This document shows, one piece after another, positions 1 through 59,321 of a DNA stretch of 64,000 nt. Location: IMG/VR virus record IMGVR_UViG_2778261505_000002. One strand, written 5' to 3'. Both the position numbers and the translations under genes were made by a program. The stretch comes from a virus (taxonomy: Duplodnaviria > Heunggongvirae > Uroviricota > Caudoviricetes). The notes below the pieces were generated by a model, which saw only the letters and a program-made list of their open reading frames with translations, was not told the origin of the DNA and did no database searches. The stretch's first letter is position 1, and each line of letters starts with the position of its first letter.

Positions 1-1446
1 TCTTTCAGCGAAATGTTGCAGGCATGGACCCGCAGCGGTGCGTTGCAGGAGCAGGTGGCAAACAAAATGCAGGAGTGGTTTGAATCTGGCCTGCAACAGT
101 GGGATATCTCCCGTGACGCACCTTACTTCGGTTTTGAAATCCCGAACGCACCGGGCAAATACTTCTACGTCTGGCTGGACGCGCCGATTGGCTACATGGG
201 TTCTTTCAAGAATCTGTGCGACAAACGCGGCGACACTACCAGCTTCGACGAATACTGGAAGAAAGACTCCACCGCCGAGCTGTACCACTTCATCGGCAAA
301 GATATCGTTTACTTCCACAGCCTGTTCTGGCCTGCCATGCTGGAAGGCAGCAACTTCCGCAAGCCGACCAACCTGTTTGTTCACGGCTATGTGACGGTGA
401 ACGGCGCGAAGATGTCCAAGTCTCGCGGCACCTTTATTAAAGCCAGCACCTGGCTGAATCATTTTGACGCCGACAGCCTGCGTTACTACTACACTGCGAA
501 ACTCTCTTCGCGCATTGATGATATCGATCTCAACCTGGAAGATTTCGTTCAGCGTGTGAATGCCGATATCGTTAACAAAGTGGTTAACCTGGCCTCCCGT
601 AATGCAGGCTTTATCAACAAGCGTTTTGACGGCGTGCTGGCAAGCGAACTGGCTGACCCGCAACTGTACAAAACCTTTACTGATGCCGCTGAAGTGATTG
701 GCGAAGCATGGGAAAGCCGCGAATTTGGCAAAGCTATCCGTGAAATCATGGCACTGGCTGACCTGGCTAACCGCTATGTTGATGAACAGGCTCCGTGGGT
801 GGTGGCGAAGCAGGAAGGACGCGATGCCGATCTGCAGGCGATTTGCTCTATGGGCATTAACCTGTTCCGCGTGCTGATGACGTACCTGAAACCGGTACTG
901 CCGAAACTGACTGAACGTGCAGAAGCATTCCTGAATACAGAACTGACCTGGGATGGTATCCAGCAACCGCTGCTGGGCCATAAAGTGAATCCGTTCAAGG
1001 CACTGTATAACCGTATCGATATGAAACAGGTGGAAGCACTGGTGGAAGCATCCAAAGAAGAAGTGAAAGCCACAGCTGCACCGGTAACTGGCCCACTGGC
1101 TGACGACCCGATTCAGGAAACCATCACCTTTGACGACTTCGCCAAAGTTGACCTGCGTGTGGCGCTGATTGAAAACGCGGAGTTTGTCGAAGGTTCTGAC
1201 AAACTGCTGCGCCTGACGCTGGATCTCGGTGGTGAAAAGCGTAATGTCTTCTCAGGCATCCGTTCCGCTTATCCAGATCCACAGGCACTGATTGGTCGTC
1301 ACACCATTATGGTGGCTAACCTGGCTCCGCGTAAAATGCGCTTCGGTATCTCTGAAGGCATGGTGATGGCTGCTGGCCCCGGCGGGAAAGATATCTTCCT
1401 GTTAAGCCCGGATGCCGGTGCTAAACCTGGCCACCAGGTTAAGTAA
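1..1446 (+). CDS. metG: methionyl-tRNA synthetase, C-terminal 481 codons (5' end outside window)
   Basis: Frame open from base 1; translation matches recalled E. coli MetG almost residue for residue through the C-terminal tRNA-binding domain; stop TAA 1444-1446. Confidence 0.95.
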
Positions 1447-1465
1447 TTAAACAACCTCTCTTCGC

Positions 1466-1495
1466 AATGCCCGGCAACACACCGGGCATTTTCAT
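1466..1495 (+). terminator. rho-independent terminator of metG
   Basis: GCCCGG-loop-CCGGGC hairpin followed by ATTTTC. Confidence 0.7.
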
Positions 1496-1529
1496 ATAGA
1501 CACAATCCCTCCTGATTTACACAAACCCT

Positions 1530-1544
1530 AAAACAATTTGTTTT
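1530..1544. promoter_or_regulatory. dyad AAAACAATTTGTTTT (operator-like, early family)
   Basis: Perfect inverted repeat; one of at least 12 dispersed copies. Confidence 0.5.
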
Positions 1545-1580
1545 CTACCTTTTGTTGATTGAGATAATAAGCCACATAAG

Positions 1581-1595
1581 AAAACAACTTGTTTT
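1581..1595. promoter_or_regulatory. dyad AAAACAACTTGTTTT (operator-like, early family)
   Basis: Inverted repeat 13 bp upstream of ATG at 1608. Confidence 0.5.
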
Positions 1596-1607
1596 GGAGT
1601 AGTTGAA

Positions 1608-1907
1608 ATGTTGAACATTACCCAAGCCTACCAGGTGGCATTGATCAGTTCATCTCATACATCAGAGGAAGATGCTCGCCGATTCATGATCGCAAGCAAT
1701 GAGCTGGATTGGGTTTCACAAATTGATGGCGGTTGTATTGTTCACGCCGGGTTACAGGATGATGTCTGGAAAGACGACTTGCGTCGATATGGTATATCCG
1801 AAGGCGCGATTGCTAACATTCAGAAAGTACTTGATGTAGGCTTTGACTCTGTACATTTTGATTGTGGAGCACCAGTCGTTGAAGGGCTTGAGTGCTGGAA
1901 CTGGTAA
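1608..1907 (+). CDS. hypothetical protein (99 aa)
   Basis: ORF preceded by dyad operator and GGAG-like RBS; no recognisable motif. Confidence 0.5.
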   Translation: MLNITQAYQVALISSSHTSEEDARRFMIASNELDWVSQIDGGCIVHAGLQDDVWKDDLRRYGISEGAIANIQKVLDVGFDSVHFDCGAPVVEGLECWNW

Positions 1908-1952
1908 CAGATATTAAAGCATTGGTAGTTTGTTTTTAGGATTATCAAAGAA

Positions 1953-2687
1953 ATGAAAAAGTTGAAAAGTTTAGAAATCCCTGGGACTGGTTATAAATTC
2001 TTTATGGACAACGCGGAGTGTGCGCCTAACGCGTTGGAAAAAATACAAAGTCTTATCAACAGCCTTACTGAAGAAGCGAAAGAACTGAAGAGCGAGGCGA
2101 CAAAGGACAATACAGCTAAAATCCAATGCTTAAATCTCGTTTCTTATTGTTTATATCAAGTGTCCAAAACACTGATTAAAGGCAATATCTATTACGACGA
2201 TGAAGACACCTCGACACCTGAAGAAAAAGATAGCGATGAAGAACTCTATGAAGATATCTCTACCAGTGCGGGTCACGCTGCCTTCGATGCTATGGGTGAA
2301 TCGTCAGGCATCAGATCGTTTGTTGAACAGAACAATTCGACAATAATGATTGAGTACTGTGAACAAACAAGCTCCAAGGCCATACATGTTCTTCACGATG
2401 TTGCTGCAGGGGTTCGCTGTGAGGCTGAAGCGGTCAGAAAAGATGTATTTGGTGCAGACAGTAATACCGTGAAAGCGTTCATCAACAGTGCTCTGCTAAA
2501 TTCTTACTCAAACCTTATCGTCAATGCGGCACTATGCGCAAATTCAGGTGAAGAACACATTGTCATAACTGAAACCAAACATGAGCATCAACAGTCACCA
2601 ACCATAGAAGAGGTAACTGCATTGGCTATCAAACAGGCGAGTGAAATTAGTGATGAAATTCTCTCTCTGCTAAACAAAACTATGTAA
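1953..2687 (+). CDS. hypothetical acidic protein (244 aa)
   Basis: ORF with D/E-rich stretches; no recognisable motif. Confidence 0.5.
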   Translation: MKKLKSLEIPGTGYKFFMDNAECAPNALEKIQSLINSLTEEAKELKSEATKDNTAKIQCLNLVSYCLYQVSKTLIKGNIYYDDEDTSTPEEKDSDEELYEDISTSAGHAAFDAMGESSGIRSFVEQNNSTIMIEYCEQTSSKAIHVLHDVAAGVRCEAEAVRKDVFGADSNTVKAFINSALLNSYSNLIVNAALCANSGEEHIVITETKHEHQQSPTIEEVTALAIKQASEISDEILSLLNKTM

Positions 2688-2811
2688 AACATTGATAATG
2701 GCGGTCACAATTTGATTCTTTTCTATAAGAATCCGTTGATCGCCACTACTCCCCTTCCATACCTGCAATCATACCCTTAAATATCAATAGGTTATGGTTG
2801 TTTATACAAAT

Positions 2812-3640
2812 AAGAAAACAACTAAATAACAGATCAACGAAACGTCAACGCTTTCACCCGATTTGGTCTAAAAAATTGACGTTTTCACACATCACTTCTT
2901 ATACCCGTAACTCTACGCAGCAGACAGCGCCACAGCGTCCAATTTTCACCACAGACGACCCAACACACTACCAACAAAAACATACGCTCAAAATCGCTCC
3001 CGTTGCGTTACACAACCATATAAACAACTTATTTTCAGTCATAACAAAACAACTAAATAACACACATGCCATTCCCAAAAACAACCAACCTCTTTATGGC
3101 AGGCTACCGAAAAGACCCACCTCTTCTCCCCAGGCTACCGGACAACCAACCTAACTTTCACAGGCAATCCGAAAACATTCATACGCGCGATACCCACGAC
3201 ACGCCATTCCCCAAACAGCGAAGAAACACCAGAATCACTGAAACCCCAACGAAGCCTGTAACCGCAAGGATTCTCTCAATCCCAAAAGACACGAAACAGA
3301 ACAATCACGGGAAACGCCATTACCCAATACACGAACAACTACAAAAGCCTTTCACACACTCCAGACAAACAACTCAAACACAATAACGAAAGCAATCGCC
3401 CACCTGCCATTACTCCATACACGGAGAAGAACAATCACCAAAACGACGAGAACACCCCATAGAAGAACCACCGCAAAACGAACGAAACCACATACACCGA
3501 CAGAGAAAACAACACACCCAATTCACCAACAGAAATAGTCGCCGTATAGAACATTCTGGAAGGAGTGAGCATTAACGCCTATAGAGAGGTTGAGACAGAT
3601 AAAACACAACATGTATAGCGAAGAAGCCAGGTATGTATAA
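2812..3640 (+). ncRNA. candidate non-coding transcript: C+A-rich, G-poor tract
   Basis: About 830 bp with strong strand skew (A and C dominate, few G), no credible ORF on either strand, dyad-like half-site at 5' end and hairpin terminator at 3' end. Confidence 0.3.
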
Positions 3641-3649
3641 GTGGGGAGG

Positions 3650-3676
3650 GAAGGAGGGGTGTCGCCTCCTTTTTCG
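3650..3676 (+). terminator. rho-independent terminator
   Basis: AGGAGG-GGTGTCG-CCTCCT hairpin followed by TTTTT. Confidence 0.65.
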
Positions 3677-3737
3677 TATTTATTCAACTCCTGATTTTAT
3701 CCCCCCGTAACACCCCTACGGTCAGCCTTCGGTCCAT

Positions 3738-3875
3738 ACAGGGAAAAGGCTGCATCCCGCTACAGAAACGGCTGGGTTGCCTTCGGGGAACGGCTGGAGG
3801 TTTTCAGGGAAACGGTCGAGTTGCCTGTGTGGATTTCGGGAAAAGGCTCGATGCCGGGTCAGGAACGGTGGCGTA
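3738..3875. repeat. iteron array, six direct repeats of core GGGAAACGGCTG at about 22 bp spacing
   Basis: Copies at 3741, 3764, 3785, 3808, 3838, 3861 with minor variation. Confidence 0.6.
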
Positions 3876-4203
3876 CCGGTATAGCGAGAGGGAGAGTTGC
3901 GGCTACCCACCTGTAATGTGCGGGAAGAAGAGAGGCGCTCACGTAGGCGGACTTGCTTACCGCTGGATTCCCTCTGAATGCCCAGCTACAGCGTAATTGT
4001 GCCAGACAGCCAACGGGTCACAATCGATTTCAGTAGGTTTTTGGGGAGAGGATTACTCTGCCACCAGCCACTTTCGGCCACTAAATCAGAATAATGTAAA
4101 AAGTGTACTCGGTACTGAACCTGAAAACTCACTGCCAAAACCACATTCACCGGAATAAAATCCTTTTTCGCCTGTGCGTTATTGCGATAATAACACCATC
4201 AAG

Positions 4204-4217
4204 AAAACATGTTGTTT
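4204..4217. promoter_or_regulatory. dyad-like AAAACATGTTGTTT (early family, imperfect)
   Basis: Family member upstream of ATG 4230. Confidence 0.4.
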
Positions 4218-4229
4218 AAGGATTGCTTT

Positions 4230-4559
4230 ATGTTTACAAATATCGACATCAACCAAATCAAGAAATTAACTCAAAAAGAGTTTGATCAGTTTTATGAGTT
4301 AGAAGGTTGGTCTTCCACTCTGATCAATTCAAGATGGGTGCTGGAGCTGATGACTCGTGATGACGCACCTGCTTTGATGATTTGCGACATGGGTGAAGAT
4401 GCTGACTTTATGGATATGAGCGAATTTTGTGTGGACACATACAACCGCAGCCAGAAGTACTACTTCACATGCGATAGCGAGAATGACGTTATTTCTAAGG
4501 TCTATCTTCACCTCGTCCAGCATTGGGACGTTCAGGAGTTTCTTGAAGTATTCGAGTAA
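4230..4559 (+). CDS. hypothetical small acidic protein (109 aa)
   Basis: ATG 4230 with AAGGA RBS 8 nt upstream; the track start 4209 lies inside the operator; D/E-rich. Confidence 0.5.
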   Translation: MFTNIDINQIKKLTQKEFDQFYELEGWSSTLINSRWVLELMTRDDAPALMICDMGEDADFMDMSEFCVDTYNRSQKYYFTCDSENDVISKVYLHLVQHWDVQEFLEVFE

Positions 4560-4686
4560 CCCCAACCAAAGCCAGCATTGCTGGCTTAATTTCTCTATAG
4601 CCGCAGGGAAGAACCTGCATATCGCTCATGCACCTGATCAATATGCTTTGTAGCCGTTTTCTTACTGGTATTATTTACGCCATTGA

Positions 4687-4701
4687 GAAAACAAGTTGTT
4701 T
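4687..4701. promoter_or_regulatory. dyad GAAAACAAGTTGTTT (early family)
   Basis: Inverted repeat upstream of ATG 4713. Confidence 0.45.
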
Positions 4702-4712
4702 ACGGAGTTGTA

Positions 4713-5024
4713 ATGAAAAAATCATTGGTTCTTGGTCTGGACAAAGACCAGAAGAGAAAAGAGAAGCCTGCGCTGGTTGCTCAATTAACTTTGCTGGACA
4801 TCGTTGCCAATGGAACCTCTATTCGTCTGTTCCGTGAAACAGCGGTGTCTTTCGATAAAAACACCTTTACTCGTTATGTAATGAATGTTCGTCGCCAGCG
4901 TGGAAAAGGCTGGGTGGCATTTCAAAGAATGTGGCCGGAACATCAGCTCGAACTGGCTTTGATGGAAGTTAACCGCGTGGCCCAGCAAGAAATTCAGAGA
5001 GCATCAGTGATGGCAATAGCCTGA
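4713..5024 (+). CDS. hypothetical protein (103 aa)
   Basis: ATG 4713 preceded by GGAG; track ORF 4683 trimmed to first RBS-supported start. Confidence 0.5.
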   Translation: MKKSLVLGLDKDQKRKEKPALVAQLTLLDIVANGTSIRLFRETAVSFDKNTFTRYVMNVRRQRGKGWVAFQRMWPEHQLELALMEVNRVAQQEIQRASVMAIA

Positions 5025-5059
5025 TAATGTGCAAGTGGCAATTAGTCGACAGTACGACA

Positions 5060-5087
5060 GCCCCGCCATCCTTACGGGGCTTTTTTG
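5060..5087 (+). terminator. rho-independent terminator
   Basis: GCCCCG-loop-CGGGGC followed by TTTTTT. Confidence 0.75.
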
Positions 5088-5150
5088 TATTGTAAGTACA
5101 TACTTACGATCATAGAATATAAAAATAACCAAAACACTACGGAGAGTGAA

Positions 5151-5546
5151 ATGACCGTTAAACGCGAAAAACTGACAGTTGATGTTTACTATGCCTCTGA
5201 AACCGCCGAAGGTAAGAATGTGGCAAAAATCACCGTTGTTACGTACAACACCGAAACTGGTGCCGAAGTCCAGGCCAGTACGATCGTGCGTAAAGGTGAT
5301 GCCTCCGGCGGCGAGTACGCGACTCAATACCAGTCCATTCTCGATGCAACTGACCCGCTGCTGCTGAAAATCGAGAACTACTTCCGCCAGGTTGATGAAG
5401 AGGTGTTTGAAACCATGATGAATATGGTTAACACCGTATTCGCCTCCAGCCTGAATACCAACACTACCTGGATTGGTCAGTACGGCCTGCGCATTACCTC
5501 TGGCATTCCTGCCGACACCTTAATCCCTGAAAGCGTATTCGCTTAA
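5151..5546 (+). CDS. hypothetical protein (131 aa)
   Basis: ATG 5151 with GGAGAG RBS; track ORF 5085 trimmed. Confidence 0.55.
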   Translation: MTVKREKLTVDVYYASETAEGKNVAKITVVTYNTETGAEVQASTIVRKGDASGGEYATQYQSILDATDPLLLKIENYFRQVDEEVFETMMNMVNTVFASSLNTNTTWIGQYGLRITSGIPADTLIPESVFA

Positions 5547-5554
5547 TCCTCTTT

Positions 5555-5583
5555 AAATGGCGCGTAAACCGCGCCATTTTATT
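5555..5583 (+). terminator. rho-independent terminator
   Basis: ATGGCGCG-TAAACC-GCGCCAT hairpin followed by TTTATT. Confidence 0.7.
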
Positions 5584-5590
5584 AAGCCCG

Positions 5591-5605
5591 ATAACAATTT
5601 GTTTT
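5591..5605. promoter_or_regulatory. dyad ATAACAATTTGTTTT (early family)
   Basis: Inverted repeat upstream of the 5622/5664 gene. Confidence 0.45.
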
Positions 5606-5663
5606 CTGCCTTATCTGATTTGTGAAAATGATTTCACTGAAGCAAGTTAATAAGGAAACCATC

Positions 5664-6038
5664 ATGGGACTTGATATCTATATCGAGACACAGCCTAAAA
5701 ACGATCTGAATAACGAGGCATCCAGAAAGCAGGTTGCTTACTTCCGTAAGTTCAATGCGCTCGTTGGGTGGATGGAGCGCAACGTAGGTGAAGTCGAAAA
5801 TTGTGAGCTTTTAGAATTAACGATGAATGACATTTGTTTTCTGAAGGCTCATTTGATGCACATAAACGAAAGTAATTGCGAAGAGTACTTGCCTACCCGG
5901 GAAGGTTTTTTCTTCGGCAGTCAGGAGTACGATGAAGGTTACTGGCATGATGTGGGGCAGTTGAAAGAGCTTGTGGAAGACCTGATTAAGAACCACGACT
6001 TTCACAATAACAGACTGACCTTCTGCGCCTGGTGGTAA
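5664..6038 (+). CDS. hypothetical protein (124 aa; alternative start 5622)
   Basis: ATG 5664 has AAGGA RBS; upstream in-frame ATG 5622 cannot be excluded. Confidence 0.5.
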   Translation: MGLDIYIETQPKNDLNNEASRKQVAYFRKFNALVGWMERNVGEVENCELLELTMNDICFLKAHLMHINESNCEEYLPTREGFFFGSQEYDEGYWHDVGQLKELVEDLIKNHDFHNNRLTFCAWW

Positions 6039-6040
6039 AT

Positions 6041-6184
6041 ATGGGCGATTTCAAGAAACGCCTGAAGGAAAGAGCCGAGATGGTCAGAAAGCAAAACGCC
6101 TCTTCTGTCATCAGATACGCAAGGCAGTTTAGTCGCAACAACAAATCAGTTGAGGAAAAGATCCTTAGCGTAATCGGTCGATAA
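6041..6184 (+). CDS. small ORF (47 aa), basic
   Basis: ATG 3 nt after preceding stop, below the track length threshold; followed by a hairpin at 6189-6214. Confidence 0.3.
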   Translation: MGDFKKRLKERAEMVRKQNASSVIRYARQFSRNNKSVEEKILSVIGR

Positions 6185-6353
6185 TTATTAAGGCCATCAG
6201 CATTGGTGGCCTTAAATGACCATCCTGTTTCCCGCAGGCTAAAAACACCAACCTCTTACCTCCAGGCAACCGATAAACCCACCTGTTCCCGTCCGGCTAC
6301 CGCAACTTTCCACTTTGACGCCTTATTCGTACAACGATAATTAACACCAACAA

Positions 6354-6369
6354 GAAAACAATTTGTTAT
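6354..6369. promoter_or_regulatory. dyad GAAAACAATTTGTTAT (early family)
   Basis: Upstream of ATG 6389. Confidence 0.45.
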
Positions 6370-6388
6370 TTACGATAAGGAATTAATC

Positions 6389-6871
6389 ATGAATTTTATC
6401 GCCACTGTAAACGCACCCGCACATGGCAATATCGCTGTAACGTTCTCTGACATTGAAAAACGAGTACTTGGTGCATGGCGCGACAATGAGACGGTAGAAC
6501 TGTCAGCACAAGAAAAATGCATTATTGCACGCGACATCATTGGCAATCGTCGTTACTCGCGGGTATTTGAGAAAGCGTATGTGGTAAATTCTGGATTCGG
6601 AACGTTCGTCTTTCCGGTGCGCTCCGGGCGATTCTGCCAGTCCAAGCTGATTGAGTTCGCTACGCAGATTTCTGTCTGGATTAAAACTCAATCGTCGTTC
6701 AAATTTTCCGACGATGAAGCAGTATCGCAGGGGATGCGGATCGCCAACAATGCAATTAAATGCAAAAACATTACGTATACCGCTGGCGTTGATACATGGA
6801 AACTGTTTTGCGCTAACTTTATGCTGAATGTATACGCAAGCAACCGCATCCACATCCTTGATGGCGTGTAA
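6389..6871 (+). CDS. hypothetical protein (160 aa)
   Basis: ORF preceded by operator dyad and AAGGA RBS. Confidence 0.55.
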   Translation: MNFIATVNAPAHGNIAVTFSDIEKRVLGAWRDNETVELSAQEKCIIARDIIGNRRYSRVFEKAYVVNSGFGTFVFPVRSGRFCQSKLIEFATQISVWIKTQSSFKFSDDEAVSQGMRIANNAIKCKNITYTAGVDTWKLFCANFMLNVYASNRIHILDGV

Positions 6872-6880
6872 CTGAGAAGA

Positions 6881-6903
6881 GGGCCAGAAACGGCCCTTTC
6901 TCT
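6881..6903 (+). terminator. rho-independent terminator
   Basis: GGGCC-AGAAAC-GGCCC followed by TTTCTCT; loop itself resembles the iteron core. Confidence 0.6.
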
Positions 6904-6917
6904 ATAGCCACCAGCTG

Positions 6918-7000
6918 CCGCAGGGAAATTTTCAGAAACGGCGAGGAACGTATTCATGAGCCGACGGGGAACGGCCAGGATTTTTTCGGGAAACGGCTGC
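6918..7000. repeat. second iteron array, about four GGGAAACGGC-type repeats
   Basis: Copies at 6921, 6934, 6966, 6988 related to the 3738-3875 array. Confidence 0.5.
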
Positions 7001-7290
7001 ATTCGCCTTTGTGTAGAAAAAACATCGGGAAGCTGGTGGAATCCAACCAGCGGTTGTCGGACAGGTGAGCGGGGAAAATTATGATGACTTTCGTCACCTG
7101 AGACATCCAGATTTCTTTCGTAGCATAATCACATACGTGATTAAGTGGTGTGATTAAGTGAAAAATCACGCGCACATAATACGCGAGCGGATACAGAACA
7201 AAACAAAATGCCGATCCGCACCGACAAATAAACGCGGATCACATAGCAAGACTAAAAGCCAATGATTAACCATACTCTATAGCGCAATAT

Positions 7291-7482
7291 AACGCGTTTT
7301 AAGCGCGTTAATGTGTTAAGTAATGGGCATGTACTGGTAAGGATATAAAAGCGCGTCTATGGCGTTATTTTGGCGCTTATTTTTATGTTGTTGGAGTGAG
7401 TTAAAGACAATAAAAAACGCGCCATCAATGGCGCGTTATTGTGGAAGTATTGGAAACGAAAAAAGCGCCCATAGTGGGCGCT
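7291..7482. repeat. cluster of GC-rich palindromes in an AT-rich non-coding region
   Basis: AACGCG..CGCGTT at 7291, AACGCGCCAT-CA-ATGGCGCGTT at 7416-7437, AGCGCCCA-TAG-TGGGCGCT at 7464-7482; the last two are flanked by A and T runs (bidirectional terminator-like). Confidence 0.5.
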
Positions 7483-9237: not shown

Positions 9238-9762
9238 TCAAAAAGGCAAAATTCGTTCAACCCAATCGAACAAAACAACTATTTTTCTACCGTTCTCGAC
9301 ACGTAGTGTAACCTGACAAGCATCTGCACCTGCTGACACCCCCTCAATTTCACGGCCATCCGCCATGTACACCCTTATAGATTTGTTTGCTTTGTAGGCT
9401 TGGTTGCAAATTGCAAAAAAATCGCGGCGTGATGGCCGATTATCGACATAATCAGGGTGAACTGTTAGTCGACCTTTGAAATCGTGAGCGATACTGTCAA
9501 CCACACCTGATTCAATTGTACTAATGCGTTCAAGTGGGAGCCTTATACGATTTTCTTTGTCAAAAGGGGCTGGGCAAAGGTCAACTTTGTTACGAGATGG
9601 CATGAGGCCATAAACGTACATGCAAAACGCCTGGCCATCTTCGAGAGTGACCCTTACAGGAATTTGTTCTCTGCGCCAGAACATCAGTAGTTTTTCAACG
9701 TTAGTGTAATCTCGCGGCCAGAGTTCAGCTTGGATACCGTAGGTAATATCTTTGGTTGTCAT
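9238..9762 (-). CDS. hypothetical protein (about 175 aa)
   Basis: Track ORF 9238-9840 trimmed to the ATG just downstream of the lipoprotein stop. Confidence 0.45.
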   Translation of the reverse strand: MTTKDITYGIQAELWPRDYTNVEKLLMFWRREQIPVRVTLEDGQAFCMYVYGLMPSRNKVDLCPAPFDKENRIRLPLERISTIESGVVDSIAHDFKGRLTVHPDYVDNRPSRRDFFAICNQAYKANKSIRVYMADGREIEGVSAGADACQVTLRVENGRKIVVLFDWVERILPF

Positions 9763-9766
9763 GTCA

Positions 9767-10189
9767 TCACAGAGTTGTTGGCAGAATGTCGATGTCACCA
9801 GAATTGCTGGTGAACACCCTGAACGCTTTTGTGTCTCCATTCTTCAGAGTCGTTTCTCGCTCTTGACGAGCGGGGTTTAGAGCACATAAACCTGCACCTT
9901 CAAGAGATGCACCCACAATTAATTCTCCGGCATTTAAATGGAAAGTCGCTTTTTCGCCTGTAGCCAGTTTTGCGACAGTTTCGCCGTTGATGAAAATGGA
10001 AGCATCACATCCAGCTCCTACAAAACCTGTGTCTCTCATTACCACCAACGTAGCTGGCGCTGCGCTTTGATACTTGAACACTTTGGCCTGCGGTGCTGGT
10101 TTGGCGTCATGGATTGATATTGGGCGTGATTGGCACGCGGTAAGCATCAACACTGGTAACGTTAGTAGAGGGAGAAGCGAGTATTTCAT
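9767..10189 (-). CDS. lipoprotein (candidate superinfection-exclusion factor)
   Basis: MKYSLLPLLTLPVLMLTAC signal with lipobox LTAC; function is inference. Confidence 0.5.
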   Translation of the reverse strand: MKYSLLPLLTLPVLMLTACQSRPISIHDAKPAPQAKVFKYQSAAPATLVVMRDTGFVGAGCDASIFINGETVAKLATGEKATFHLNAGELIVGASLEGAGLCALNPARQERETTLKNGDTKAFRVFTSNSGDIDILPTTL

Positions 10190-15468: not shown

Positions 15469-15510
15469 AGAAAACAAGTTGGTTAGCAGATGCAGTAAAC
15501 AAGTTGTTTT
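15469..15510. promoter_or_regulatory. two tandem early-family dyads (AGAAAACAAGTTGGTT, GTAAACAAGTTGTTTT)
   Basis: Upstream of terminase small subunit gene. Confidence 0.45.
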
Positions 15511-15549
15511 AGAGCGCATGGACGCGCTCTGTGTGTTTTAGAGGGATCT

Positions 15550-45826: not shown

Positions 45827-45842
45827 AGAAAACAAGTTGTTT
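45827..45842. promoter_or_regulatory. dyad GAAAACAAGTTGTTTC (early family)
   Basis: Upstream of parA-like gene. Confidence 0.45.
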
Positions 45843-45877
45843 CAGACGATAATTATATACGCAAAGGGAACTCTCCA

Positions 45878-48756: not shown

Positions 48757-48772
48757 AGAAAACAATTTGTTT
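48757..48772. promoter_or_regulatory. dyad AGAAAACAATTTGTTT (early family)
   Basis: Upstream of helicase gene. Confidence 0.45.
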
Positions 48773-48791
48773 AAAAAACAAAGGAAAGCAC

Positions 48792-57274: not shown

Positions 57275-58378
57275 ATGAAAAATAGCTTTGACAGAGCACG
57301 CGCTGCGGAGAACACCTCAAAAGAGGCGATTGAGTATCTCGAAAGAGCATCTCAAATGCAGGCCGTTATGATCTCGCAGGTTAGCAATGATATGAGATTC
57401 TCGGACGCATTCATGTTATTTACTCGCTTATCTCTGCTGATAACCAGACGTCGGCCAGAGATCGCTGTTCATTGTATTTTGATACATGTTTTGCCGCACA
57501 TTGCCGATGTAAAAGTAAGTGACATTAATAGGTTCATGGTGAACCAACTGGTCAACCCACTAATACTGGATGGCAAAATTGTTATGGGCCGCCGCGTTTT
57601 CTCTCTGATGAAGCAGTTCCTTAGCTGGTGCGCCTTCCAGGGGATGATAGACGTGTCACCGTTAAACGATATGTCACTTAACAAAGTTGCCGGTGGCGCA
57701 AAGCCCACACCTCGCGAGCGGAAGCTGACCGACGCAGAGGTATGGGTGTTCTGGAATATATGGGACTACTTCAATGTGTGCGCTGGTACAAAATGGGCGG
57801 CCAGGCTGTGTCTTGTATCCGCAAGACGACCTGACGAAGTACTGCGGGCTAAAAAAAGTGAGTTCAATCTTAAGCGTGGGGTTTGGAATCAAGGCAAGAG
57901 GAACAAATCTGCCCGTGAGCATTCGCTGCCTTTAAGCACATTAATGCGCACATGTATTGAAGAGTTGTTCGAATACGGTAAAGGCAGCCAGTGGCTCGTG
58001 CCTTCGAATAAAAAAATCGGGAAAGACCTTCCTATGTCTAAAGTGGCAATAGCCCAGGCATTACGTCGTATTCTGGAACGACCAGAACTGATGGAGCTTG
58101 AGCCATTTACACCCCGAGACTTGCGCCGTACTGCGCGTAGTTACTTCCCAGCATTAGGCATAAGCCAGGAGGTATCACGTAAAATCATGAACCACAGTCT
58201 TGAGGGGATAGATCGAGTCTACGACCGGCACGATTATATGGACGAGATGCGAGACGCCTTAGAAAGTTTCTCGACGTACATCGCATCAATCGTAGAGCAA
58301 CCGGATTTAGACGAAATTGACCACAAATTCAAGGGAGATCGTCTATCAACAGAGCTTATTCGTGTAAATTTTTCATAG
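57275..58378 (+). CDS. tyrosine recombinase / phage integrase
   Basis: C-terminal catalytic pattern R...NHSLEG...RVYDRHDY (Arg, His-x-x-Arg, Tyr). Confidence 0.8.
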   Translation: MKNSFDRARAAENTSKEAIEYLERASQMQAVMISQVSNDMRFSDAFMLFTRLSLLITRRRPEIAVHCILIHVLPHIADVKVSDINRFMVNQLVNPLILDGKIVMGRRVFSLMKQFLSWCAFQGMIDVSPLNDMSLNKVAGGAKPTPRERKLTDAEVWVFWNIWDYFNVCAGTKWAARLCLVSARRPDEVLRAKKSEFNLKRGVWNQGKRNKSAREHSLPLSTLMRTCIEELFEYGKGSQWLVPSNKKIGKDLPMSKVAIAQALRRILERPELMELEPFTPRDLRRTARSYFPALGISQEVSRKIMNHSLEGIDRVYDRHDYMDEMRDALESFSTYIASIVEQPDLDEIDHKFKGDRLSTELIRVNFS

Positions 58379-58759
58379 AGACTTTATGGCCTCAACAACC
58401 TTTTGTGATGCGCCTTTCTCTTTACCGAATCGCTCGTTATATGCAGCAAGAACCTGTTTTTCGTCCTCGTTAAGAGGAGCGGTGCCTTCTTTGTATAAAA
58501 ATGCTGCGAGTTCAGGTTGGCGTTCTTCCAGCACCATCATCATAAGACGACTTGGCTCAATACCCAGCGCCAGCGCCAACGGACGAACCTTATCGATAGG
58601 CAAAGGAATTTTGCCACTTTTAATTAAAGAAAGGTTGTTGGCATTTTTATAACCAATAAGTCTGGCTATTTGGGCCTGACTCATAGGTGAGGATTCAATC
58701 AGCCCTGCGATAAAAGCAGCATAGCGACTTTCTATAAATTCAATCTTGTTGTCAGACAT
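58373..58759 (-). CDS. HTH (XRE-like) DNA-binding protein, candidate repressor
   Basis: HTH segment SQAQIARLIGYKNANNLSLIKSGK; convergent with and overlapping the integrase 3' end. Confidence 0.55.
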   Translation of the reverse strand: MSDNKIEFIESRYAAFIAGLIESSPMSQAQIARLIGYKNANNLSLIKSGKIPLPIDKVRPLALALGIEPSRLMMMVLEERQPELAAFLYKEGTAPLNEDEKQVLAAYNERFGKEKGASQKVVEAIKSL

Positions 58760-59010
58760 TGTTACAACCTTTGCGCGTTCAATTCTCACTGGTAAGTGCT
58801 TACCGATATTACATCAAAGGTTAGGGTTGTAAAGCTATTATCATTTTTTTCGATAGGCACTTAAAAGACCGGTTAAAGGCCATTGCACGGAGAAAAATTA
58901 GCCCAAAACAGGTAAGAAAATTAACTTGTATATGATATGAATGTATTCAGTATTGATATAAATTTTAGTAGTATTCCTTACCATAGTATAAGTTAGAATG
59001 GATTGATTGA

Positions 59011-59223: not shown

Positions 59224-59321
59224 CCCCTCTTCTCCCTGCGCGAATGGCTTAGTTCCCTGTTCGCGCAGTGCTACATTAAACACACTAGTAAATAATTTGT
59301 TTTCATAACAAAGGATTAGCC

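Follow-up and report, generated by a model that had tools for sequence, protein, structure and literature searches.

Arrays of small genes that share repeated control signals have been described on several kinds of mobile element. The hyperplastic regions of T4-type phages carry so-called PeSL (promoter-early stem-loop) cassettes (PMC2839356, PMC4122927); on the IncN plasmid pKM101, one repressor binds a repeated upstream sequence and some genes of the regulon (ardA, ardB) are anti-restriction genes, as far as the account of Delver and Belogurov 1997 in PMC6289460 describes it; and the leading regions of plasmids are enriched in anti-defence genes (PMC11541004). Here, we analyzed the interval 1608-6871 (hereafter the island) of a 64,000-nucleotide (nt) stretch of the IMG/VR virus record IMGVR_UViG_2778261505_000002, a member of the Caudoviricetes; the whole stretch is referred to as the window. 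The island extends from the ATG of its first open reading frame (ORF) to the stop codon of its last. A first-pass annotation made from the letters alone had described it as an early-like group of small, individually terminated genes and as a source of anti-defence candidates. Our analysis indicates that the island is, on balance, a hyperplastic accessory region of an SSU5-type phage-plasmid, in which slots around a conserved gene frame are refilled with unrelated small acidic proteins. Our verdict is that of an ordinary but neatly modular accessory region.

Positions 1400-7400 of the window matched 245 complete Escherichia coli plasmids and no chromosome. The closest named phages in this region were Escherichia phage CMS-2020a (98.7% identity) and Cyrano, also known as pLF82 (97.5%), and further relatives of the element are Salmonella phage SSU5 and SSU5-like phages of Klebsiella. 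Because the matches comprise both plasmids and these phages, we assign the element to the SSU5-type phage-plasmids.

Small genes, refilled slots and their control modules

Eight coding ORFs, o1 to o8, were found in the island and are organized in approximately seven transcription units. Lengths are in amino acids (aa), and pI denotes the isoelectric point.

1608-1907, plus strand: o1, 99 aa, pI 4.32, DUF5983 family, with a coding signature
1953-2687, plus strand: o2, 244 aa, pI 4.64, net charge -19, an orphan with an acidic run at residues 79-106
4230-4559, plus strand: o3, 109 aa, pI 4.21, net charge -14
4713-5024, plus strand: o4, 103 aa, pI 10.5, core gene of the SSU5 supergroup
5151-5546, plus strand: o5, 131 aa, pI 4.48, a core gene that is nonetheless fast-evolving, with alleles of 36-100% identity
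5664-6038, plus strand: o6, 124 aa, pI 4.75, occupant of a variable slot
6041-6184, plus strand: o7, 47 aa, pI 11.0, starting 2 nt past the o6 stop codon
6389-6871, plus strand: o8, 160 aa, pI 9.2, core gene restricted to SSU5-like elements

All eight displayed the substitution pattern of coding sequence among relatives, with an excess of changes at third codon positions and a synonymous fraction of 0.32-0.75, and each is preceded by a Shine-Dalgarno sequence 6-13 nt upstream. ORFs called on either strand within 2688-4229 showed a flat codon-position profile and a synonymous fraction of 0.18-0.25. The first-pass annotation had listed seven small ORFs of 47-244 aa; the size range stood, and the count is eight. 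Its contrast with the tightly coupled late operons also agreed with the measured spacing: gaps in the structural operon are mostly between -35 and +73 nt, whereas the island gaps (45, 1542, 153, 126, 117, 2 and 204 nt, in order) are mostly wider.

The accessory character of the island became apparent from 84 related loci gathered around o8 homologues in E. coli, Salmonella, Klebsiella, Kluyvera, Buttiauxella and Yersinia pestis. Across these loci o4 (54-100% identity), o5 (36-100%) and o8 (66-100%) form the core; o1 is common in relatives with a shifting position, and o2, o3, o6 and o7 vary between loci. Over the 2.65 kb that precede o8, 83 loci displayed 27 different gene orders on a shared layout, namely slot A, o4, o5, slot B, slot C and o8. 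The occupants of the slots (o3, f72a, f72b, c73, c19, c105, c109, o6(-o7), c114, c148, c2/cy110 and c83) are mutually unrelated, save for the two pairs f72b/c73 and c2/cy110, which look related. Their pI lies between 4.05 and 4.8, with o7 and c41 as exceptions, and the variable slots are filled almost exclusively by small acidic proteins of fast turnover.

One breakpoint was inspected base by base. Cyrano carries an extra cassette of 438 bp (locus L001, 10836-11274) encoding CYRAN_110 (116 aa, pI 4.3), which is inserted at the hairpin that follows o7 (window 6187-6220). The 34-bp hairpin is duplicated on either side of the cassette, with its loop inverted on one side, and a further promoter/operator copy comes with the cassette. 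Modules of terminator and promoter/operator that recur in the island bound the indels found among relatives, and in consequence three slots around the o4/o5/o8 frame are refilled with unrelated small acidic proteins.

The modules themselves are built from a sigma-70 promoter, an operator and a hairpin. The operator is a 17-bp dyad, GAAAACAAnTTGTTTTC, of which 14 sites with at most three mismatches were found in the window versus 0.66 expected; none of 100 shuffles reached 14. Seven of the sites lie in the island, two of them before o1, one each before o3, o4, o6 and o8, and a degenerate one at 3020. The signals are as follows.

1529-1545, no strand assigned: dyad copy TAAAACAATTTGTTTTC with one mismatch, overlapping the -35 region of the o1 promoter
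1560-1568, plus strand: extended -10 element TGAGATAAT of the o1-o2 promoter, as read from the sequence
1580-1596, no strand assigned: dyad operator before o1, at about +1 to +17 and 11 nt ahead of the o1 start codon
4183-4219, plus strand: o3 promoter module of family D3, with extended -10 element TGCGATAAT (4183-4191) and dyad (4203-4219)
4569-4587, plus strand: intrinsic terminator after o3
4666-4703, plus strand: o4 promoter module, with extended -10 element TGGTATTAT (4666-4674) and dyad (4687-4703)
5059-5087, plus strand: intrinsic terminator after o4, a GCCCCG hairpin with a U tract
5090-5118, plus strand: promoter-like site of o5 (TTGTAA, 17-nt spacer, TAGAAT) without a dyad
5555-5579, plus strand: intrinsic terminator after o5
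5590-5629, plus strand: o6-o7 promoter module of family D8, with the dyad (5590-5606) over the -35 region and extended -10 element TGTGAAAAT (5621-5629)
6188-6215, no strand assigned: hairpin after o7, the one duplicated around the extra gene cassette of Cyrano
6334-6370, plus strand: o8 promoter module, with -10 element GATAAT and dyad (6354-6370)
6874-6902, plus strand: terminator after o8, followed by a second GGRAAMGG array (6887, 6935, 6968 and 6990; region to 7008)

Five units combine the palindromic operator, which in most units sits at about +1 to +17, with a sigma-70 promoter whose -10 element is usually of the extended kind. The gene-proximal dyads come after the -10 element, often of the extended form TGnGATAAT, and their centers lie 18-66 nt before the start codon; o2, o5 and o7 have no dyad directly upstream. 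The promoter/operator families D2, D3, D4 and D8 were all found among the repeats of the island. At the other end, five units close with a terminator-like hairpin and a U-rich tail: the hairpins after o3, o4, o5, o7 and o8 have predicted energies of -15 to -20 kcal/mol and z-scores of -1.8 to -4.2, and the hairpin after o2 has no U tract. The impression of the first-pass annotation that most of the genes have their own operator dyad and several their own terminator was therefore well founded.

Copies of the dyad that carry mismatches break the symmetry without compensation, which favors a DNA operator over an RNA hairpin, and the dyad keeps its relative positions in the relatives from Salmonella, Klebsiella, Kluyvera, Yersinia and Buttiauxella. 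Outside the island it is found upstream of the late terminase operon (15470-15511, with copies at 15470 and 15495), a MipZ-like parA (45828-45844), a DnaB-like helicase gene (48758-48774) and a cobT-like gene (59288-59304), and two further weak copies lie in a block of minus-strand genes. Since the dyad is common to the island and to the terminase, parA, helicase and cobT operons, it marks an element-wide regulon and not the island alone. Two proteins were considered as its repressor. The better candidate would be a helix-turn-helix (HTH) protein (58373-58789, minus strand) encoded beside the integrase gene and homologous to Cyrano CYRAN_45. The alternative is an FljA-like protein (9238-9840, minus strand), in which the FljA domain ("repressor of phase-1 flagellin", E 2.5e-84) is present at full length; the target of FljA is a 5' untranslated region, and the dyads lie in 5' untranslated regions.

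The genes o6 (acidic, 124 aa) and o7 (basic, 47 aa), spanning 5664-6184, were never separated in relatives. The 2 nt between the o6 stop and the o7 start suggest translational coupling, and the two products possibly form a two-protein pair.

The island is flanked on one side by a host-like metG (13-1446) and on the other by the minus-strand block, which includes the FljA-like regulator and a UvsW-like helicase and is followed by the terminase and structural operon. A methionyl-tRNA synthetase gene of host type is thus carried on the phage-plasmid, and relatives carry apbC upstream of the window; apbC (annotated as MinD-like in Cyrano) was expressed in lysogens according to published RNA sequencing (RNA-seq), and metG remained under the 5-fold cut-off of that paper. 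Upstream of the non-coding element at 2688-4229, the position taken here by metG, o1 and o2, the cargo of relatives varies (HsdM, GmrSD, Mrr, DndB, DUF4145, NYN and membrane or secreted proteins), and the slot of o2 itself holds membrane or secreted proteins. Defence systems in this cargo region beside the island comprise type I restriction-modification (R-M), GmrSD, Mrr, DndB, DUF4145 and NYN; they sit 3-8 kb upstream of the o8 homologue in the loci L054, L078, L084 and others, and also in NZ_CP082122.1 (81093-87017). With defence systems in the adjoining cargo of relatives, the neighborhood of the island is a hotspot for defence and cargo genes.

Expression in lysogens and a conserved non-coding element

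Expression evidence was taken from the published RNA-seq of the 97.5%-identical Cyrano in E. coli LF82 (PMC9928086) and thus pertains to that relative and not to the present sequence; values are log2(fpkm+5), with fpkm denoting fragments per kilobase per million, from S1 Table of that paper. In lysogens grown in LB medium, the homologues of o2 (CYRAN_102) and o7 (CYRAN_109) were expressed 6-fold over the prophage background and were listed as morons (Table 1 of that paper), and the HTH "putative repressor" CYRAN_45 was 10-fold over background. The other six genes (o1, o3, o4, o5, o6 and o8) were near background in LB and rose in stressed cells: o3 from 2.3-4.4 in LB to 7.5-7.8 after 1 h and 6.9-7.2 after 6 h in macrophages, o8 from 4.0-5.1 to about 7.5 and about 6.4, o5 from about 4 to 6.2 and 7.1-7.3, and o1 from about 2.9 to 4.6-5.5 across both time points. 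For comparison, TerS went from 2.7-3.0 to 3.9-4.0 and 4.9-5.6, the major capsid protein from about 2.9 to about 4.0 and 7.4-7.8, the helicase stayed at 4.1-5.1 in all conditions, and CYRAN_103, a spurious ORF in an A/C-rich block, went from 2.3 to 2.9-4.3 across the time points. Only o7 of the o6/o7 pair was well expressed in lysogens, which suggests an internal promoter or a stable 3' fragment. The Cyrano data fit lysogenic repression with early or leaky release of the island units. The early-like, individually terminated layout proposed at first reading is in line with these results, as most units have their own promoter, operator and terminator and most island genes rise under stress ahead of the structural genes.

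The same data bear on the idea that the island is mainly lysogenic-conversion cargo, i.e. morons that serve the host or exclude competitors in the plasmid state and do not act at entry. Expression of o2 and o7 in LB lysogens fits this idea, one promoter and one terminator per gene is the classic moron layout, and both the membrane or secreted proteins in the o2 slot of relatives and the adjacent cargo (metG, apbC and defence systems) point the same way. However, autonomous expression well over background in lysogens, which defines a moron, was confined to o2 and o7, with the other six genes near background; five units share their operator with lytic operons; and the products, judged by eye, are soluble and acidic and have no signal peptides or membrane segments. 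We therefore regard cargo as an unlikely description of the island as a whole.

Nearly a third of the island (29%) is occupied by a feature absent from the first-pass annotation.

2688-4229, no strand assigned: conserved non-coding element of 1.54 kb
6213-6306, plus strand: three 30-nt repeats (CCTCTT, then CAGGCTACCG) of family D1, just upstream of the o8 promoter

Within the element lies an A/C-rich block (2796-3645; 40% A and 30% C on the plus strand), and SSU5 and Klebsiella pJN2-26 show the same succession of an A/C-rich and a G/C-rich part. Degenerate promoter/operator copies (2807-2823 and 3008-3062) are present in the element, along with three 30-nt repeats (3078-3174), a hairpin resembling a terminator (3648-3675) and six direct repeats of GGRAAMGGCTG, mostly at 22-bp spacing (3741-3871). 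Both types of repeat recur around o8, the first before its promoter (6213-6306) and the second after its terminator (6887-7008), and the arrays keep their position and orientation in all genera examined, from E. coli to the pMT1-like relatives of Yersinia. Compared with SSU5, the element is 68% identical over 1290 nt, on par with the neighboring genes.

Several identities were considered for the element and rejected. It has no match in Rfam, the part 3690-4200 folds no better than shuffled sequence on either strand, and the element was silent in the RNA-seq of lysogens, all of which speaks against an RNA. A hydrophobic ORF on the minus strand (3435-3572) is open in 39 related loci with in-frame indels, yet lacks a codon-position signature and has a synonymous fraction of 0.25; it lies on the G/T-rich strand and probably stays open because A is scarce there. 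A decayed copy of o8 was dismissed since no residual similarity was found except for the flanking repeats. The repeats are not iterons of RepB, which have another sequence and are located about 35 kb from the island, and the motif TTTCAC, reminiscent of P1 ParB box A, is enriched in the A/C-rich block and is not conserved in relatives.

A further explanation starts from this element and takes the conserved core, made up of the non-coding element, both repeat arrays and the basic proteins o4 and o8, as a cis-acting locus with its binding proteins, the acidic genes being passengers. Possible roles for such a locus are those of a lytic origin, of a site for copy control or pairing, or of a site connected with packaging. 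The 22-bp- and 30-bp-spaced repeats, which keep their place across genera both in the element and flanking o8, are consistent with it, as are an element that is conserved like its neighboring genes while being non-coding, lysogen-silent and devoid of predicted RNA structure, and the presence of o4 and o8 as conserved, basic proteins across the whole group. The plasmid initiator RepB with its different iterons is, however, about 35 kb distant, and in the window the helicase/primase module lies at a distance of about 44 kb; Pfam and profile searches detected no DNA-binding domain in o4 or o8, and no origin-like AT-rich unwinding element was identified. As an account of the whole island we hold this to be rather improbable. 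The repeats may be arrays to which the conserved basic proteins o4 and o8 bind; the other ideas considered for the element itself were a lytic origin and a C-rich Rho-loading insulator. The A/C-rich element and its duplicated arrays might constitute a cis-acting site new for SSU5-type elements.

Acidic products and the anti-defence question

The first-pass annotation had called o2 and o3 strongly acidic and likened them to DNA-mimic anti-restriction proteins such as Ocr and ArdA. We ranked the 79 non-overlapping ORFs of the window by net charge per residue. o3 was the most acidic (-0.12 per residue for the 116-aa ORF ranked and -0.13 from the annotated start), with its negative charge peaking in residues 40-70, and o1 was second (-0.10 per residue, pI 4.32). 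o2 ranked sixth (-0.078 per residue), behind one TerS-like and two ParB-like proteins; -11 of its net charge of -19 falls in residues 79-106 (IYYDDEDTSTPEEKDSDEELYEDISTSA), leaving the other 216 residues at -0.037 per residue. The description thus holds for o3 and is too strong for o2, which is moderately acidic with mostly local charge. Ocr and ArdA carry roughly -0.2 charges per residue over the whole molecule, and the densities of o3 and o2 are about half and a third of this.

Homology offered few clues to function. o1 belongs to DUF5983 (Pfam PF19419; 42.8 bits versus a cut-off of 27, E 6.9e-11), with residues 12-99 aligned to positions 3-90 of the 90-position profile, and PGAP names a protein identical to o1 a DUF5983 family protein. 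Seven ORFs, all but o7, matched a PHROG of unknown function at E<=1e-49, and o7 had no PHROG match. Beyond these, Pfam, PHROGs, NCBIfam and PADLOC yielded no annotated family for the eight ORFs, none matched Ocr, ArdA, ArdB/KlcA or another anti-restriction family (Pfam E<=0.1, PHROGs E<=0.01), and scans with Pfam, PHROGs and defence models found no known anti-defence, ssb or SOS-inhibition gene in 1608-6871. The homologues of o2 amount to one 99%-identical cluster among 5.8 billion clusters and to 40 plasmids, all of at least 95% identity. Those of o3 are confined to SSU5-like elements of Escherichia and Shigella and one Enterobacter plasmid at 33% identity; its remote relatives, which look acidic by eye, form three clusters (25-36%) in a set of 1.84 billion representatives, and no Pfam domain was found in them. 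No homologue of known function was found for o2 or o3 in the cluster and plasmid searches. Searches of the PDB gave nothing credible by sequence (o2, o3, o5, o8) or by profile (o3, o4, o8), a "multicystatin" match of o3 being discarded as no stretch of it passes on its own. The AlphaFold model of o5, with a predicted local distance difference test score (pLDDT) of 74, matched no known fold. Structure prediction, suggested earlier as a check for DNA-mimic folds, was uninformative for o3, whose AlphaFold2 model is unusable (mean pLDDT 42).

These results can be set against the proposal that o2, o3 or both are anti-restriction proteins of the Ocr/ArdA type, made on entry against type I R-M or BREX. 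In its favor, no ORF of the window is more acidic than o3 (pI 4.21, -14 over 109 aa), and the handful of remote homologues that it has appear acidic too; the gene has an operator-controlled promoter and a terminator to itself, and few island genes are induced as strongly in stressed lysogens. In close relatives, moreover, a type I R-M system is encoded within a few kb, which makes restriction a relevant pressure. Yet no anti-restriction family or PDB relative was recovered at the thresholds given above, and the charge densities of -0.13 (o3) and -0.08 (o2) are well under those of Ocr and ArdA. More than half of the charge of o2 sits in one 28-residue run, an acidic linker, the remainder being ordinary; among the proteins of the window, those resembling ParB and TerS match o2 in acidity; and o2 is expressed in lysogens and occurs in 40 plasmids only. 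The low-confidence model of o3 adds nothing to its credit. We consider DNA mimicry by either protein very unlikely, and the analogy drawn at first reading is weak.

Anti-defence in a wider sense fares better and is a plausible, reasonable hypothesis given association, small size, acidity and fast turnover. The only positive leads are of association, namely the leading-region neighbors of o1 and the turnover of acidic proteins in the slots. Full-length homologues of o1 (31-37% identity) were found in 2301 plasmids, 1663 of which are typed as conjugative. In an IncL/M plasmid of 63.6 kb, which is the size of pOXA-48, the o1 homologue directly follows ssb within a co-oriented run that contains an antirestriction protein, DUF1380, DUF4942 and Hha and adjoins mobA-traI. 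In SSU5, the annotation places DUF1380 next to the o1 homologue, and DUF4942 was a Pfam match among proteins sampled upstream in SSU5-group relatives. As read from gene neighborhoods, the link of o1 to anti-defence would be guilt by association, and it has no bearing on o2 or o3. That at least one protein of the island inhibits a defence system is possible, without being what we would expect. More specific and more doubtful is the notion that the island is the phage-plasmid counterpart of leading-region anti-defence islands, a repressor-gated array whose slots recombination at the repeated terminator/promoter modules would refill and in which each slot holds an acidic inhibitor of a different defence; if this were true, the o3 family and approximately 10 unrelated acidic slot families would be new anti-defence proteins, and the dyad cassette a handle with which to search for them.

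Taken as a hyperplastic accessory region, the island would work as follows. One repressor encoded by the element would hold most units off in the plasmid-prophage state, and the operator-controlled units would be among the first genes released on induction or entry. Their products, which have no enzymatic domains, would most likely bind proteins of the host or of competitors during establishment, in host take-over or counter-defence. o2 and o7 would instead behave as morons expressed in lysogeny.

Several observations weigh against this picture. No island protein has a function that is demonstrated or inferred from homology, and the repressor of the dyad is represented by candidates only. The dyad also precedes the terminase operon, so that a dyad alone does not mark an "early" gene. 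The RNA-seq data come from stressed lysogens and not from a timed infection, and transcription of o2 and o7 in lysogeny means that not every unit is repressed. With regard to counter-defence, the cargo region adjoining the island in relatives has defence genes (HsdM, GmrSD, Mrr, DndB) and not known anti-defence genes, and a DefenseFinder survey reported few known anti-defence systems in SSU5-group elements (10.1101/2025.09.12.675607).

Among clinical E. coli, Shigella, Salmonella and Klebsiella, SSU5-type phage-plasmids are a common finding; they move resistance genes, and standard tools find almost no anti-defence genes in them. The conserved operator-plus-terminator cassette supplies a short list of about a dozen families of small acidic proteins and a handle for finding such slots in other elements. 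Even if no gene affects defence, the region displays PeSL-like modular shuffling in a temperate phage-plasmid together with a strongly conserved non-coding element. The most useful outputs of the analysis are the cassette architecture, the list of slot occupants and the non-coding element.

Comparison with described systems

Like Ocr (gp0.3 of T7) and ArdA, o3 is a small acidic protein from an early, separately controlled unit; unlike them, it has a lower charge density and shares no sequence or profile similarity with them. The immunity system of phage P1, in which the C1 repressor acts on many scattered operators, resembles the present element in that one operator sequence is placed at many promoters around a phage-plasmid genome. 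The C1 operator is an asymmetric 17-bp sequence, in contrast to the perfect-type palindrome found here, and C1 is an established repressor where the SSU5-type element offers candidates.

The leading-region anti-defence islands of plasmids (PMC11541004) are likewise co-oriented runs of small, often uncharacterized genes, and they share families with the present locus, namely the DUF5983-like o1 and, in relatives, DUF1380 and DUF4942. Unlike these regions, the phage-plasmid enters by injection of double-stranded DNA and not by transfer of single-stranded DNA; the interval has neither a single-strand promoter of the Frpo type nor ssb, psiB or a known anti-defence gene and is under operator control of the prophage type. 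Nor does the island lie next to oriT on the DNA transferred first: 220 of 229 plasmids with o3 and all 40 with o2 are typed as non-mobilizable, and no relaxase is annotated in the 98.7%-identical plasmid within the approximately 78% of its record that was inspected (positions 1-34000 and 58400-108374).

With the CUP (conserved upstream) elements of the ArdK/KorA-controlled regulon in the leading region of pKM101, in the part of the system summarized in PMC6289460 from Delver and Belogurov 1997, the island has in common small genes in a row, each with a shared promoter/operator upstream. It differs in that neither ardA nor ardB was matched in Pfam or PHROGs, no ardK homologue was found, and the element is typed as non-mobilizable, neither oriT nor a relaxase being seen; the operator has a different sequence and also controls lytic phage operons.

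The PeSL cassettes differ from the island in their hosts, which are virulent T4-like myoviruses and not temperate phage-plasmids of siphovirus type. The promoter module of the island in addition includes a palindromic operator for repression and shows no sequence relationship to the PeSLs of T4. The architecture is nonetheless alike. In both, small genes without an assigned function have small composite motifs of terminator and promoter recurring between them, and where close relatives differ by an indel or a replacement the motifs mark its ends, as seen here at the one breakpoint inspected; the variable genes are grouped between conserved core genes.

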